In this document: one piece after another, positions 13,134-31,167 of the stretch
Layout of the letters: every line of letters starts with the position of its first letter
Numbering within the stretch: position 1 is the stretch's first letter
Assembly: GCF_004296515.1 (NCBI RefSeq)
Contig: NZ_AP018160.1
Span: forward strand, 60,001 to 92,000
DNA from: Candidatus Saccharimonadota bacterium
GTDB lineage: Bacteria; Pseudomonadota; Gammaproteobacteria; Enterobacterales; Enterobacteriaceae
Length of the DNA: 32,000 nt
Direction of reading: 5' to 3'
Position numbers and translations under genes: made by a program
The notes under the pieces: model-generated
Told to the model about the DNA's origin: nothing
Database searches by the model: none
What the model saw: the letters and a program-made list of their open reading frames with translations, nothing else

Positions 13134-13592
13134 TTAATTGATTATAATAGAGCTTATAACAGAACTTATTATTATACAAATAATTTCATTAGTATAAAAA
13201 TTAATATAGTTTAATTTTATTAAATTTAAAATTTTAAATATTAATAATTTACTTATAAAAGTTATTATATTATAAATAGTTATTAATTTAAATTTATCAA
13301 TATATTTATTATTATTAAATATAAATATATTATTTTTAATAAAAAAATCAGAAATAATTATAGTAATTAATTCTATACATAATATATTATAAAAAATTAA
13401 ATCTTTTAAAATACTTATTATAAATATATATATATATTTATAATTTAATTTACTATTATTAATTAAATTTATAATATATATTTTAAATAAATTATATATT
13501 ATTAAATTTAATAATATATAATTTATACAATAATTTGATACTAATATATTTAATAATATAGATATAAATATTTTTAATAAAATAAATATCAT
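13134..13592 (-). CDS. mreD: Rod shape-determining protein MreD (putative)
   Basis: The 152-aa ORF is very hydrophobic and multi-spanning, with the size and position of MreD. Its ATG overlaps the mreC stop by 4 nt. The assignment rests mainly on synteny with mreB-mreC. Confidence 0.7.
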   Translation of the reverse strand: MIFILLKIFISILLNILVSNYCINYILLNLIIYNLFKIYIINLINNSKLNYKYIYIFIISILKDLIFYNILCIELITIIISDFFIKNNIFIFNNNKYIDKFKLITIYNIITFISKLLIFKILNLIKLNYINFYTNEIICIIISSVISSIIIN

Positions 13593-25145: not shown

Positions 25146-26147
25146 ATGAATAATACAGAAGAAAGAAAGAAATTTTTAGCTATAGCGTTAGATCAAATTG
25201 AAAAACAGTTTGGGAAAGGTTCTATAATGAGATTGGGTGATGATAGATCTATGGATATAGAAACTATTTCTACTGGTTCTTTATCTCTTGATATAGCTTT
25301 AGGAGCTGGAGGATTACCAATGGGTAGAATAGTAGAAATATATGGTCCTGAATCTTCTGGGAAAACAACATTAACATTACAAATAATAGCAGAAGCTCAA
25401 AAAAAAAATAAAACATGTGCATTTATAGATGCAGAACATGCTTTAGATCCTTTATATGCATGTAAAATAGGAGTAAATATAAATGATTTATTATGTTCTC
25501 AACCAGATACAGGAGAACAAGCTCTTGAAATATGTGATTTACTAACTAAATCTAAAGCAGTTGATTTAATAATTGTTGATTCTGTAGCTGCATTAGTTCC
25601 AAAAGCTGAAATAGAAGGAGAAATAGGAGATTCTCATATAGGATTAACTGCTAGATTAATGAGTCAAGCTATGAGAAAATTAGCTGGAAATTTAAAAAAT
25701 TCTAATACATTATTAATATTTGTAAATCAGATAAGAATTAAAATCGGTGTAACTTTTGGAACAACTGAAACAACAACTGGAGGTAATGCTTTAAAATTTT
25801 ATTCATCAATAAGATTAGATATAAGAAAAATAGGATCTATAAAGGATGGTGATAATATTATAGGAAATGAAACAAGAGTAAGAGTAGTTAAAAATAAAAT
25901 ATCAATTCCCTTTAAACAAGCTGAATTTGAAATTTTATATGGATATGGAATAAATTCATTTGGAGAATTAATAGATATTGGTGTTAAATATAAATTAATA
26001 GATAGATCAGGTTCTTGGTATAGTTTTAATGGTGAAAGTATAGGACAAGGTAGAACTAATGCATGTAATTTTTTAAAATCTCATTTAAATATTTATGAAT
26101 CTATAAAAAATCAACTAAGAAATATAACAATAAAAAATAATAAGTAA
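25146..26147 (+). CDS. recA: Recombinase RecA
   Basis: The 333-aa ORF has ..[66 protein letters not shown].., nearly identical to E. coli RecA over the core. The acidic C-terminal tail is shortened. Confidence 0.99.
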
Positions 26148-26157
26148 TTTATTTAAT

Positions 26158-27480
26158 ATGTTTTTAAGTACATTAAATATAAAAAATATTTTTATAAATT
26201 TTTTTAAAGAAAAAGATCATTTAGAAATAGAAAGTAGTTCTTTAATACCTAAAAATGATAGTAGTATATTATTTACTAATTCTGGAATGAATCAATTTAA
26301 AAATATTTTTTTAGGAATAGAAAAACCAATATATAATAAAATTGTTACTATACAAAGATGTTTAAGAGCTGGAGGTAAAGATAATGATTTAAGTAAAGTT
26401 GGATACTCTTCTAGACATCATACATTTTTTGAAATGTTAGGAAATTTTAGTTTTAATAGTTACTTTAAAAAAAGTAGTATAGAGTACGCATGGGAATTAT
26501 TAACTAATAAAAATTTTTTTAATATATCTGAAAATAGATTAATTGTTACAGTATATTATAATGATATAGAATCTTATAATATTTGGAATAAAAATATAGG
26601 TATATCTAAAAAAAAAATATTTAAAATAGGAGATAAAAATAATAGAAAATATATATCTGACAATTTTTGGAGTATGAGTGAATTTGGTCCTTGTGGTCCT
26701 AGTTCTGAAATATTTTGTAATATTAATAAAAATAATTGTAATTATAATTTAAATTTAAATAAAATTAGTGATGAATATATAGAAATATGGAATTTAGTTT
26801 TTATTCAATTTAATAAATGTAAAAATAATAATTTAACTGAATTACCATATTTTTCTGTAGATACTGGAATGGGTTTAGAAAGAATATCTTCAATAATACA
26901 AGAAGTAGATTCAAACTATAAAATAGATTTATTTAAAGACTTAATTAATAAGTTAAGAAAAAAATTAAATATAAAATATAATAATATTATTTCATTAAAA
27001 ATTATAGCTGATCATTTAAGATCATGTATATTTTTAATATCTGATGGAATATATCCATCTAATGATAAACATGGATATGTATTAAAAAAAATAATAAGAA
27101 GATCTATATATCATGGAAAATTATTAGGTGTAAATTTCCCATTTTTATATAAAATAATTGATTTTATAGATGATAATATAAAATATTTTTATACATATAA
27201 TATAAATATAGATTTTAATTTAATAAAAAATATAATTTATTTAGAAGAATGTAAATTTGAAAATTCTATAAATAAAGGTTTAATAATTTTAAATAAAAAA
27301 ATAGATGAAGGTAATACTTTTATAGATGGAGATTTTATTTTTTTATTATATGATACATATGGTTTACCAATCGAAATAATAAATGAAGTTTGTAATATAA
27401 AAAATATTAATTTTGATAATAAAAAATTTAATAAATTATTAGATTTTCAAAAAAATAAATCTAATTCAAGTAAAAAATAA
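26158..27480 (+). CDS. alaS: Alanyl-tRNA synthetase, catalytic N-terminal half only (440 aa; editing and C-Ala domains absent)
   Basis: ..SSSLIPKNDSSILFTNSGMNQFKNIFLG..IQRCLRAGGKDNDLSKVGYSSRHHTFFEMLGNFSF.. and ..FSVDTGMGLERISSIIQ..IADHLRSC.. match E. coli AlaRS residues 1 to about 460. The ORF ends (..LYDTYGLPIEIINEVCNIKNINFDNKKFNKLLDFQKNKSNSSKK*) at the position equivalent to about residue 460 of the 876-aa E. coli enzyme. tRNA-Ser starts 20 nt later. Confidence 0.92.
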   Translation: MFLSTLNIKNIFINFFKEKDHLEIESSSLIPKNDSSILFTNSGMNQFKNIFLGIEKPIYNKIVTIQRCLRAGGKDNDLSKVGYSSRHHTFFEMLGNFSFNSYFKKSSIEYAWELLTNKNFFNISENRLIVTVYYNDIESYNIWNKNIGISKKKIFKIGDKNNRKYISDNFWSMSEFGPCGPSSEIFCNINKNNCNYNLNLNKISDEYIEIWNLVFIQFNKCKNNNLTELPYFSVDTGMGLERISSIIQEVDSNYKIDLFKDLINKLRKKLNIKYNNIISLKIIADHLRSCIFLISDGIYPSNDKHGYVLKKIIRRSIYHGKLLGVNFPFLYKIIDFIDDNIKYFYTYNINIDFNLIKNIIYLEECKFENSINKGLIILNKKIDEGNTFIDGDFIFLLYDTYGLPIEIINEVCNIKNINFDNKKFNKLLDFQKNKSNSSKK

Positions 27481-27500
27481 AATAAATTATATTTTTTTAG

Positions 27501-27583
27501 GATGAGGTGGCCGAGTGGATTAAGGCGTTCCCCTGCTAAGGGAATATATATTTATATCAAGGGTTCGAATCCCTTCCTCATCG
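27501..27583 (+). tRNA. tRNA-Ser (anticodon GCU)
   Basis: gatgaggtggccgagtggattaaggcgttcccctgctaagggaatatatatttatatcaagggttcgaatcccttcctcatcg has anticodon arm ttccc/ctGCTaa/gggaa, a long all-A/T variable arm and G73. It resembles E. coli serV and keeps the serV-argV position after alaS. No CCA is encoded. Confidence 0.9.
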
Positions 27584-27585
27584 AA

Positions 27586-27659
27586 GCATTCGTAGCTCAG
27601 AATGGAAGAGCACTCGGCTACGAACCGAGAGGTCGTAGGTTCGAATCCTTCCGAATGCA
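27586..27659 (+). tRNA. tRNA-Arg (anticodon ACG)
   Basis: gcattcgtagctcagaatggaagagcactcggctacgaaccgagaggtcgtaggttcgaatccttccgaatgca has anticodon arm ctcgg/ctACGaa/ccgag. It resembles E. coli argV and lies only 2 nt after tRNA-Ser. The T stem has one U.U mismatch. No CCA is encoded. Confidence 0.9.
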
Positions 27660-27797: not shown

Positions 27798-27821
27798 TTT
27801 TTTTTTTTTTTTTTTTTTTTT
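27798..27821 (+). repeat. Homopolymer T24 filling the tRNA-Thr / tRNA-Tyr spacer
   Basis: Counted directly from the sequence: 24 consecutive T from 27798 to 27821, ending immediately before nucleotide +1 (G27822) of tRNA-Tyr. Confidence 0.95.
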
Positions 27822-30135: not shown

Positions 30136-30567
30136 ATGAAAAATAAAATAGACTTTTATATAAAATTTCAAATTCCTTCTCAAGAAGCTAGTCCAAATCC
30201 TTCTATAGGATCTGTATTAGGTCAAAGAGGTATAAATATTATTGAATTTTGTAAAGATTTTAATGATAAAACTAAAAACATTGAAAAAGGATTATTAATT
30301 TCTGTTATAGTAAATATTTATTCAGATAAAACTTTTTTATTATCTATAAAATCTCCTGTTACATCTTTTTTATTAAAAAAAGAATTAAATATTAATTTAG
30401 GATCTAAAAATCCAGGTAAAGATTTTATAGGGTCTATAAGTATGGATAAAATAAATAATATATCTAATTTAAAATTTAAATATATGAATGGATATGATAT
30501 TGATTCTATAAATAAATCTATAATAGGAACCGCTAAATCTATGGGTATAAAAATAATAAATGATTAA
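30136..30567 (+). CDS. rplK: 50S ribosomal protein L11
   Basis: The 143-aa ORF has ..IKFQIPSQEASPNPSIGSVLGQRGINIIEFCKDFNDKTK.. matching E. coli L11 ..[38 protein letters not shown].. Confidence 0.95.
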   Translation: MKNKIDFYIKFQIPSQEASPNPSIGSVLGQRGINIIEFCKDFNDKTKNIEKGLLISVIVNIYSDKTFLLSIKSPVTSFLLKKELNINLGSKNPGKDFIGSISMDKINNISNLKFKYMNGYDIDSINKSIIGTAKSMGIKIIND

Positions 30568-30654
30568 TATTATTAAAATTTAATTAAATATTACAAATAT
30601 ATTAATTAAACAAATTATAATATATAAATAAATAAAATAATTTAATTAAATATA

Positions 30655-31167
30655 ATGAAAATAAAAAATATTGAATATAAAAAAAATATAGTATTAAATC
30701 TAAATGAATTATTAAAACATAAAATTTTATCTTTGATATTAATTAATCCTACTTATTTAAGTTTTAATGACTTAATATATATTAGAAAAAATGTTATTAG
30801 TAAAAAATTAAATTTATTTATGATAAAAAATTCTTTACTTAAAAAATCAATAGTAAATACTAAATTTAATTTTATAGAAAAATATGCTAATGGACCAAAT
30901 ATGATTTTATATTTTTATGAATATAATATAATTGATTATGTAAAAAAAATAATTTCTTTTTTTAAAAATAAAAATTTAAATAATATAAAATTAATATTTG
31001 TTGAAAATAGAATTTTTGTTGAATCTAAAATAGATTATTTACATAATTTAATATCATTTGAAAATTCTATAAAAAAAATTATATTTATTTTAAATAAAAT
31101 ATCTATAATTAACTTATTAAAAATTTTTAATTTTATAAAAAAAATAAAACATGAAGAGGAAATTTAA
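30655..31167 (+). CDS. rplJ: 50S ribosomal protein L10
   Basis: The 170-aa ORF lies directly upstream of rplL (TAA then ATG with no spacer). It has an L10-like pattern: ..LIYIRKNVISKKLNLFMIKNSLLKKSI.. vs E. coli ..[27 protein letters not shown].., and ..GPNMILY.. vs ..GPTLIAY.. Confidence 0.85.
   Translation: MKIKNIEYKKNIVLNLNELLKHKILSLILINPTYLSFNDLIYIRKNVISKKLNLFMIKNSLLKKSIVNTKFNFIEKYANGPNMILYFYEYNIIDYVKKIISFFKNKNLNNIKLIFVENRIFVESKIDYLHNLISFENSIKKIIFILNKISIINLLKIFNFIKKIKHEEEI

Follow-up and report, generated by a model that had tools for sequence, protein, structure and literature searches.

The N-terminal fragments 461N of Escherichia coli alanine-tRNA ligase (AlaRS) and 453 of A. aeolicus are the classical examples of truncated enzymes that charge both tRNA and microhelices, and Nanoarchaeum equitans possesses a split AlaRS, the C-terminal part of which is encoded by a second gene. 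Naturally editing-deficient aminoacyl-tRNA synthetases of host-restricted organisms have reportedly been surveyed by Melnikov et al. 2018 (PNAS 115:E11505). The Methylomonas fragment AlaRS429, which ends at the residue equivalent to the end of the protein described here, has a kcat/Km for Ala of about one third of that of the full-length enzyme, and its Ser/Ala ratio is raised from 0.002 to 0.081 (PMC12143591). In bacterial AlaRS efficient charging needs C-Ala-mediated dimerisation and elbow contacts (review, PMC8583063), and therefore a monomeric fragment may be a poor enzyme. Loss of editing is costly in E. coli, as seen for the C666A mutant, so that a complete lack of proofreading would be surprising; in mice an AlaRS editing defect causes neurodegeneration (sti), and C723A mice are embryonic-lethal (PMC6918089). 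AlaRS editing is backed by several redundant systems across life, and Kelly et al. 2019 argued that the fidelity of this enzyme is 'evolutionarily protected'.

The window analysed here, a stretch of 32,000 nucleotides, belongs to Candidatus Nardonella, the bacteriome symbiont of the weevil Pachyrhynchus infernalis, whose strain Pin-AIST has a complete genome of 226,287 bp with 17.4% GC and 212 CDS. On its forward strand lies an alaS gene (26158..27480, ATG start, TAA stop at 27478-27480) that encodes a truncated alanine-tRNA ligase of 440 aa, extremely rich in Lys, Asn and Ile. The Pfam scan of this product gave a single domain, tRNA-synt_2c (PF01411; residues 8-439 on model positions 2-432 of 552, E 9e-141), and no match to either tRNA_SAD (PF07973, the HxxxH/CxxxH editing domain) or DHHA1 (PF02272, C-Ala). 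The NCBIfam model TIGR00344 (alaS) is matched with 474 bits, above the equivalog cut-off of 457, and the match is confined to model positions 1-430 of 847; the missing positions 431-847 hold the beta-barrel, the core of the editing domain (HxxxH/CxxxH) and C-Ala/DHHA1. The proofreading and C-terminal domains are retained by nearly all organisms. Judged from these profile matches, the protein belongs to the alanine-tRNA ligase family, with the catalytic core and the tRNA-recognition domain present and the editing and C-Ala domains absent. This agrees with the preliminary description of the locus, in which the gene was read as a natural AlaRS reduced to its catalytic and tRNA-recognition half.

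The position of the C-terminus had been placed differently in that description, at about E. coli residue 460 and thus near 461N. Alignment to the crystal fragment E. coli AlaRS441 (3HXU) is colinear over residues ~3-436 with ~46% identity, and because residue 436 of the query pairs with E. coli residue 436, the C-terminus of the Nardonella protein falls near E. coli residue 440, matching AlaRS441 and AlaRS429. The polypeptide thus stops where the helix bundle for tRNA recognition gives way to the beta-barrel of the editing domain. An AF2 model of the 440 residues (pLDDT 84) superimposes on 3HXU and on 3HXZ, the structure of the E. coli G237A mutant, with a Foldseek TM of 0.82 in both directions over 441 residues. 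The boundary between the two domains was borrowed from Methylomonas AlaRS429 (catalytic 1-241, helical 242-429) by adding ten residues, an offset that is based on the alignment at residues 204-249 and, for the C-terminal end, on the pairing of query residues 6-435 with chain residues 4-425; by this offset Methylomonas residue 429 is about query residue 439. The class II aminoacylation domain accordingly covers residues 1-~251 (26158..26910, forward strand) and the helical tRNA-recognition domain residues ~252-440 (26911..27477, forward strand), the latter being all-helical in the AF2 model (H257-438) and closing with a tail rich in Lys, Asn and Ser.

Residues of the active site are retained throughout. 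Arg70, Trp171, Asn212, Val214, Asp235 and Gly237 of the query correspond to E. coli R69, W170, N212, V214, D235 and G237 and are invariant in two alignments (A1 and A3). Asp235-Thr236-Gly237 (GAT ACT GGA, 26860..26868, forward strand), aligned to E. coli D235/G237, forms the part of the alanine pocket that is responsible for the Ser/Ala 'recognition dilemma', and its columns are likewise invariant in both alignments. Asn302 and Asp399 (the latter in 'YDTYG') are also conserved in the Nardonella AlaRS; we take them to be E. coli Asn303 and Asp400 (initiator Met counted), which contact the G3:U70 pair. Considering the conservation of the protein among Nardonella lineages (see below) together with the activity of AlaRS429, the 440-aa enzyme is expected to alanylate tRNA-Ala.

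The gene stands in the ancestral recA-alaS-csrA-serV-argV context. Upstream, recA (25146..26147, forward strand; ORF call, Pfam RecA_N/RecA_C) is separated from the ATG of alaS by a gap of 10 nt that holds no recX. Downstream, a spacer of 20 nt (27481..27500) without coding remnant leads to tRNA-Ser(GCU), which begins at 27501 and is followed by tRNA-Arg(ACG), the two forming a serV-argV-like pair of ancestral neighbours (27501..27659, forward strand, ARAGORN); tRNA-Thr, tRNA-Tyr, tRNA-Gly, tRNA-Thr and tuf come next. The absence of recX and csrA with gaps of 10 and 20 nt, and of any remnant of the editing or C-Ala domains before the tRNA-Ser, had been stated earlier, and all of it is borne out at the locus. 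In Nardonella EPO and Nardonella SGI csrA is kept directly 3' of the short alaS (spacer 27-29 nt). The tRNA-Ser/tRNA-Arg pair also lies 3' of alaS in EPO, after csrA, and in Makana; tRNAs were examined in these two genomes, and the downstream order in SGI comes from gene calls only.

The alaS reading frames of Nardonella Pin, EPO and SGI are all 440-446 aa long. Pairwise identity of AlaRS among these lineages is 49-55%, the same as that of tyrS, dnaJ and nusG; constraint was gauged by comparing protein identity with that of essential genes nearby, synonymous sites being saturated at 17% GC and ~50% protein identity. The short AlaRS is ancestral to Nardonella and not peculiar to the Pin genome, and the degree of divergence suggests that lineages with a truncated AlaRS are long-lived. 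Short AlaRSs are also present in Makana and in other insect symbionts, and in a tree of the N-terminal domain short and full-length enzymes are interleaved. Makana and the other insect symbionts thus appear to have acquired the short form on their own, although the tree is a crude neighbour-joining one, prone to artefacts of AT composition. Among the best 150 matches, the closest cluster representatives, about 130 exceed 800 aa.

Two psyllid symbionts carry a 3' half of alaS that is still decaying. In CP181165 a stop after codon 440 is followed by ~1 kb of stop-riddled DNA that keeps 72% DNA identity to the 3' half of alaS in its relative PC38, where the gene is full-length; in the Trioza apicalis symbiont a 560-aa ORF is followed by three colinear remnants of the editing domain (E 6e-5 to 3e-3). 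These intermediates show the route of loss: a premature stop where the two domains meet comes first, and deletional erosion follows.

We consider it likely that the Nardonella gene encodes a functional free-standing catalytic AlaRS, which would charge tRNA-Ala without cis proofreading and without C-Ala; its activity, the lack of editing in trans and the ensuing mistranslation are the conjectural parts of this reading. It probably arose when a codon between the tRNA-recognition domain and the editing domain mutated to a stop, after which AT-biased deletional erosion would have consumed the 3' half, no longer translated, all the way to the downstream neighbour. Selection would cease to protect the reading frame near residue 440, and a limit of this kind would account for the observation that the C-termini of AlaRSs from independent lineages differ in position by no more than about 10 residues. 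Most probably no dedicated Ser-tRNA-Ala deacylase would be left in the genome, and the residual Ala-to-Ser/Gly mistranslation would be tolerated, helped by a proteome very low in alanine (alanine makes up 2.1% of the 9,644 residues in the 29 ORFs of the window) and by the strong drift to which a symbiont with vertical inheritance is subject. A more demanding proposition is that proofreading of Ser/Gly-tRNA-Ala, in cis or in trans, and the one known fidelity-raising change in the active site are both missing in Nardonella, and that the same holds, by separate origin, for Makana and no fewer than three further lineages of insect symbionts; for this we regard the chances as evenly balanced.

The editing function could reside elsewhere, so that tRNA-Ala would still be proofread in trans by a relocated C-terminal piece of alaS or an AlaX-like protein, by Dtd in the case of Gly-tRNA-Ala, or by an imported host deacylase. 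[quoted passage not shown] An HMM of the C-terminal half of AlaRS (431 positions), run in all frames, found no match in any frame of the window. For the C-terminal piece there was no match with E <3 in record positions 52,780-101,519, a span of 48.7 kb whose share of the Pin genome, 21.5%, leaves room for a distant copy or for an AlaX-like, Dtd or YbaK/ProX-type deacylase, and none at E <=1 within ±10 kb of alaS in EPO and SGI. Among the tRNAs of the same 48.7 kb there was no tRNA-Ala. When a profile of the editing domain, made from sequences of AT-rich symbionts (A2), was compared with 5.8 billion proteins, the 120 matches listed were all partial AlaRSs on unrelated contigs; the named ones among these 120 come from other, mostly free-living, bacteria, and the 226-kb contig is absent among the matches listed, a listing that carries no information on Nardonella either way. 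The products of gene fission are normally adjacent, whereas alaS abuts csrA or tRNA-Ser at 20-29 nt in three Nardonella genomes, and in the decay intermediates the 3' half has been destroyed in place, not relocated. E. coli, the only member of the Enterobacterales behind this evidence, has no AlaXP homologue (PMC6918089); an ancestral free-standing copy is thus not expected, which makes a hidden copy in Nardonella unlikely. Taken together, proofreading in trans is improbable.

A shortened AlaRS could also dispense with editing if its catalytic site had become more selective against Ser and Gly, as reported for editing-less ProRS and mitochondrial PheRS. Loss of an editing domain can indeed come with higher substrate specificity (reviews, PMC11415595), and in Methylomonas AlaRS a single change, L219M/F, abolishes misactivation of Ser and leaves the enzyme blind to it (PMC12143591). 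The equivalent of Leu219 is Leu229 of the window (TTA, 26842..26844, forward strand), as seen from the alignment of 'nltpLp' in 9JC7 and 'nltpMp' in 9JDN with 'nlteLp' here. This Leu is invariant across all short AlaRSs aligned, so that the known fidelity-raising substitution is absent in Nardonella, and in every short AlaRS Val214, Arg70, Trp171, Asn212, Asp235 and Gly237 are likewise unchanged. A scan for positions that are conserved in full-length AlaRS and changed in the short forms gave six columns, all of them peripheral and non-convergent, and convergent active-site substitutions in short AlaRSs were rejected on that basis. Compensation, by the host or by chaperones, had been raised in the preliminary description as an alternative; tested in part, compensation finds no support in the alanine-pocket residues or in the Leu whose replacement by Met abolishes activation of Ser, and we hold a compensated catalytic site to be very unlikely.

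The 440-aa frame might instead be the non-functional remnant of a dying gene, with tRNA-Ala charged by an imported host AlaRS. Genes of aminoacyl-tRNA synthetases are lost in symbiont genomes below about 200 kb (PMC11020763), and Portiera lineages have lost the aminoacylation half of alaS (PMC5322561). However, three deeply diverged Nardonella lineages retain the ORF length, all catalytic residues and TIGR00344 similarity at the equivalog level, AlaRS has diverged to the extent of essential genes, and in several lineages the frame closes neatly at one and the same domain boundary, which random decay would not yield; a dying gene is accordingly most improbable. As for an artefact or a recoded stop beyond which the gene in truth continues, stop recoding does occur in other tiny symbionts (the alaS of Stammera is full length only with TGA read as Trp), but nothing in favour of this reading was found for Nardonella, and it is already refuted by the data, since the stop is TAA and the Trp codons of alaS are TGG, which rules out recoding, a tRNA gene begins 20 nt 3' of the stop, the same short form is found in three Nardonella species, and the identical 440-aa product is encoded on two Pin contigs of 226,299 and 226,287 bp. 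The alaS DNA is identical in the window and in AP036057, an assembly of 6,811-fold coverage made separately from the assembly AP018160 of a 2012 field sample (presumably the 226,299-bp contig); the earlier view that the stop at 27478-27480 is no assembly or sequencing error is thereby upheld.

Returning to the more demanding proposition, with no proofreading in cis or in trans, what would it mean? If it is correct, Nardonella, Makana and the others would be natural, long-lived counter-examples to the 'evolutionarily protected' fidelity of AlaRS, and the recurrent cut at ~440 would mark the minimal AlaRS able to sustain a cell, ~20 residues below 461N. The point on which the truncations converge can also be read as a deletion map, drawn by nature, of the smallest functional AlaRS. 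These symbionts would also offer a natural system for asking how much Ala-to-Ser/Gly mistranslation a cell bears, and whether it is buffered by the composition of the proteome, with its 2.1% Ala, or by chaperones. They would likewise allow one to ask why Leu219 is universally retained, even where editing has been lost, a question raised outright in NAR 2025 (PMC12143591). A literature search, outside the scope of which the Melnikov 2018 survey fell, found nothing on the truncated AlaRS of Nardonella. That quality control of translation erodes in tiny-genome symbionts is known, and the short AlaRS of Nardonella agrees with this; considering that erosion of aminoacyl-tRNA synthetase editing in host-restricted bacteria is established and that the gene is already annotated publicly, it is an informative example and not a new principle.

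Compared with canonical bacterial AlaRS (~875 aa, TIGR00344), the Nardonella protein is orthologous over its 440 residues to the N-terminal part and shares the ancestral gene context, whereas model positions 431-847 are lacking. The engineered fragments E. coli AlaRS441 (3HXU/3HXZ), Methylomonas AlaRS429 (9JC7), A. aeolicus AlaRS453 (1RIQ) and E. coli 461N have the same domain content. AlaRS441 and AlaRS429 share its C-terminal boundary within a few residues, and the Nardonella enzyme is ~20 residues shorter than 461N and ~15-25 shorter than the A. aeolicus fragment. All of these are laboratory constructs, whereas the short alaS of Nardonella belongs to a living organism, and no other alaS turned up in the 21.5% of its genome that was covered. 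With N. equitans it has in common a catalytic part that forms a separate polypeptide, but the second gene was not found in the 48.7 kb. It has two characteristics of the class of editing-deficient synthetases (Li 2011; Melnikov 2018), in that the organism is obligately host-restricted with a strongly reduced genome, and the editing site is deleted while the synthetic site is kept. The editing-deficient enzymes of host-restricted organisms (LeuRS, ThrRS and PheRS of Mycoplasma, LeuRS of microsporidia) resemble it in reduced genome, intracellular life and loss of post-transfer editing; in the best-studied LeuRS, ThrRS and PheRS cases the editing sites are point-mutated or internally deleted, whereas in Nardonella the whole editing domain and C-Ala have been truncated away. 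In Portiera aleyrodidarum (PMC5322561), likewise an insect symbiont with a tiny genome, alaS is interrupted in this inter-domain region too. There the result is reversed: the editing half (alaXp) persists in Portiera and the aminoacylation half has gone from some of its lineages, whereas Nardonella keeps aminoacylation and loses editing.

The alaS gene of the Nardonella genome that holds the window (Pin) is located at 26158-27480 on the forward strand and, from its ATG start to its TAA stop, encodes a half-length alanyl-tRNA synthetase (AlaRS) of 440 aa. It starts 10 nt after the end of recA, and its stop lies 20 nt before tRNA-Ser(GCU), which is followed by tRNA-Arg(ACG), Thr, Tyr, Gly, Thr and tuf. 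[quoted passage not shown] The single Pfam match is tRNA-synt_2c (residues 8-439, model positions 2-432 of 552, E 9e-141), neither tRNA_SAD nor DHHA1 was found in the 440-aa protein by the Pfam/NCBIfam domain search, and TIGR00344, the NCBIfam alaS equivalog, is matched at model positions 1-430 of 847 only, with 474 bits against a curated cut-off of 457. In public records the gene is annotated as 'alanine--tRNA ligase' or 'alanine--tRNA ligase-related protein'. Nardonella AlaRS is a real, conserved half-length enzyme without cis editing and without C-Ala.

The end of the protein had been placed at about E. coli residue 460. Alignment with E. coli AlaRS441 (3HXU) corrects this: residues 4-436 are colinear with E. 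coli residues 3-436 (~46% identity, E 1e-129), and the protein therefore ends at about residue 440. It is ~20 residues shorter than 461N, the classical E. coli AlaRS fragment from the deletion work of the Schimmel laboratory, and coextensive with both AlaRS441 and Methylomonas AlaRS429, residue 429 of the latter corresponding to Nardonella ~439 by alignment offset. Among known structures, the AlphaFold2 model (pLDDT 84, pTM 0.85) comes closest to the 'catalytic fragment of E. coli AlaRS', with a TM-score of 0.82 in either normalisation over 441 residues. Nardonella AlaRS is a natural counterpart, in structure and function, of the engineered fragments AlaRS441, AlaRS429 and 461N.

Several observations bear on whether the half-length enzyme works. 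The residues of the alanine/ATP pocket (R69, W170, N212, V214, D235 and G237 in E. coli numbering) are present, and all six are invariant across alignments of 14 and 24 homologues. The helical-domain residues N302 and D399 (of the 'YDTYG' motif), which contact the G3:U70 pair, are likewise invariant. Three deeply diverged Nardonella lineages, namely Pin and the symbionts of Euscepes (EPO, AP018159) and Sipalinus (SGI, AP018162), each carry an alaS of 440-446 aa. Pairwise protein identity among the three is 49-55% for AlaRS, equal to that of tyrS (48-56%), dnaJ (52-56%) and nusG (47-59%), which argues that the short gene evolves as an essential gene and not as a pseudogene. In Methylomonas, AlaRS429 retains about one third of the kcat/Km(Ala) of the full-length enzyme, and in a PPi-release assay with tRNA-Ala its relative use of Ser increases from 0.002 to 0.081 (PMC12143591). 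Judging from residue conservation and from this engineered analogue, the short Nardonella AlaRS is very probably functional.

Editing could also be supplied in trans, by a split-off C-terminal piece or a free-standing AlaX. Six-frame translations were searched with an HMM of 431 positions, built on the C-terminal halves of 15 full-length AlaRSs from enterobacteria and symbionts, and no match below an E-value of 2-3 was obtained in record positions 52,780-101,519, which comprise the window and three flanking loci (48.7 kb, 21.5% of the genome), within 10 kb on either side of alaS in EPO and SGI, or at the Makana loci. The earlier claim that no editing-domain or C-Ala remnant exists at the alaS locus holds, and the negative result for a C-terminal piece covers that 21.5% of the genome. 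E. coli has no AlaXP homologue (PMC6918089), so that a symbiont of enterobacterial descent would not be expected to have inherited a free-standing copy, and in the intermediates CP181165 and the Trioza apicalis symbiont the 3' half decays in place and is not relocated. On both grounds a hidden AlaX or C-terminal copy elsewhere in the Nardonella genome appears unlikely. Dtd clears Gly-tRNA-Ala. No tRNA-Ala gene is present within record positions 52,780-101,519.

Assembly error and stop-codon recoding are excluded, since the stop is TAA, Trp is encoded by TGG, and alaS is identical in the window and in a second assembly, so that the view of the stop at 27478-27480 as genuine holds. [quoted passage not shown] Across 15.8 kb the window and AP036057 differ at a single mismatch and in a poly-T tract whose length changes by 11 nt. 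This tract, located between tRNA-Thr(UGU) and tRNA-Tyr, has 24 nt in the window (27798-27821) and 13 nt in AP036057, which suggests either that the window represents the older AP018160 assembly or that the tract is length-variable or hard to sequence.

Comparison of alaS length across reduced symbionts revealed the short form, with aminoacylation and tRNA-recognition domains only, in Nardonella, Makana, SRR25867663, OZ193413 and CP181165, and related symbionts display a series of states. Full-length alaS is present in Buchnera and the Anomoneura mori symbiont (866-881 aa), in Stammera (885-892 aa with TGA read as Trp), and in the psyllid symbiont PC38 (CP102983.1), where 835 aa remain after a deletion of ~30 residues inside the editing domain. 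The Stammera capleta genes (L050 6001-8655, L066 6001-8676) have 5-6 in-frame TGA and one TGG only; four TGA per copy align with conserved AlaRS Trp, consistent with UGA-to-Trp reassignment. A fresh truncation is seen in CP181165.1, where a stop after codon 440 is followed by ~1 kb of decaying 3' half (L083 11324-12310) with stops in every frame and 72% DNA identity to the PC38 3' half (L035 7240-8424); PC38 and CP181165.1 are closely related ~222-kb psyllid-associated symbiont genomes with unlike alaS states. The Trioza apicalis symbiont is partially truncated: its 560-aa ORF keeps the beta-barrel, lacks the editing core, and is followed by three short stretches left over, in colinear order, from the editing and C-Ala region (L072 7684-8402; E 6e-5, 2e-4 and 3e-3). 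Truncation is clean, with no remnant, in the three Nardonella lineages, two Makana genomes (445 aa) and the symbiont in SRR25867663 (450 aa, then csrA), and near-clean in OZ193413 (1.15 Mb genome), where very weak colinear traces follow 450 aa.

All short forms end within ~10 residues of one another, just past the last tRNA-recognition helix. Short and full-length forms are interleaved when their N-terminal domains are placed on a rough, composition-biased NJ tree, CP181165 lying by PC38 and OZ193413 by Serratia symbiotica, which suggests five or more independent truncations. When 1.84 billion proteins were searched exhaustively, about 130 of the 150 closest cluster representatives proved to exceed 800 aa, so that the short form, though rare, is recurrent. 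Most simply, it would have arisen by a nonsense mutation just beyond the last residue needed for aminoacylation, easily acquired in AAA/AAT-rich sequence, after which the unprotected 3' half would be lost by deletional erosion. The shared end point would then be the place where purifying selection stops.

The neighbouring genes provide a relative date. EPO (L082 11351-11524) and SGI (L087 11371-11541) still have an intact csrA (56-57 aa) 27-29 nt downstream of the short alaS, which makes the truncation older than the loss of csrA. In Pin, as had been noted, csrA is gone next to alaS and only the 20-nt spacer (27481-27500) remains. Further differences were observed nearby. Between rplK (30136-30567) and rplJ (30655-31167), where the rplKAJL cluster normally has rplA (ribosomal protein L1), there is only an 87-nt gap (30568-30654); rplA is still in place in EPO (228 aa) and SGI (230 aa). 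A 152-aa ORF directly downstream of mreC (13134-13592, reverse strand), with no Pfam match at E <= 1e-5, is, by position, probably a very divergent mreD. EPO has a called gene of 333 aa without a Pfam match between dnaJ and recA (L082 7873-8874), where Pin and SGI have a short spacer only. Just left of the window (L089 13252-16017, record ~57.5-60.3 kb), the gene call for dnaE, the alpha subunit of DNA polymerase III, has 921 aa; the E. coli protein has ~1,160 aa, and dnaE of this genome is a candidate for another domain-level truncation.

Loss of editing could be compensated in the active site or by lowered exposure. Changing Methylomonas Leu219 to Met or Phe abolishes serine activation (PMC12143591). 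The equivalent Nardonella residue is Leu229 (codon 26842-26844), and Leu occupies this position in all short AlaRSs examined, in which Val214 (Methylomonas Val204) is likewise unaltered. A scan for columns conserved in full-length and altered in short forms returned only six, peripheral and non-convergent. At the level of sequence, active-site compensation for fidelity is apparently absent. Across the 29 ORFs of the window (9,644 residues) Ala accounts for 2.1%, compared with ~9.5% in E. coli, and AlaRS itself has 3 Ala among its 440 residues, so that few alanine codons are at risk and low Ala content is a mitigating factor for editing loss. These ORFs have an extreme composition: 39% of residues are Ile (15.0%), Asn (12.5%) or Lys (11.9%), and 195 of the 203 Ala codons are GCT or GCA.

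No paper reporting such a truncation, be it for Nardonella or for another insect symbiont, was found in the searchable literature. Two aspects are highlighted: the convergent cut near residue 440 is a natural definition of minimal AlaRS, and the Nardonella enzyme makes the question 'why not L219M?' testable. Editing loss in host-restricted organisms is documented for Mycoplasma LeuRS, ThrRS and PheRS and for microsporidian LeuRS; a survey of genomes by Melnikov et al. 2018 reportedly includes AlaRS as well. Nardonella AlaRS fits the same trend and is best classed as a further case within this already documented loss of synthetase editing. Its interest is moderate; proofreading of AlaRS is considered the hardest to lose among synthetases. 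Portiera represents the mirror image, with a split alaS and, in some lineages, the editing half alaXp only (PMC5322561). Kelly et al. 2019 argue that AlaRS fidelity is 'evolutionarily protected', proofreading loss mainly concerning LeuRS, ThrRS and PheRS, a view with which the short Nardonella AlaRS is not easily squared.
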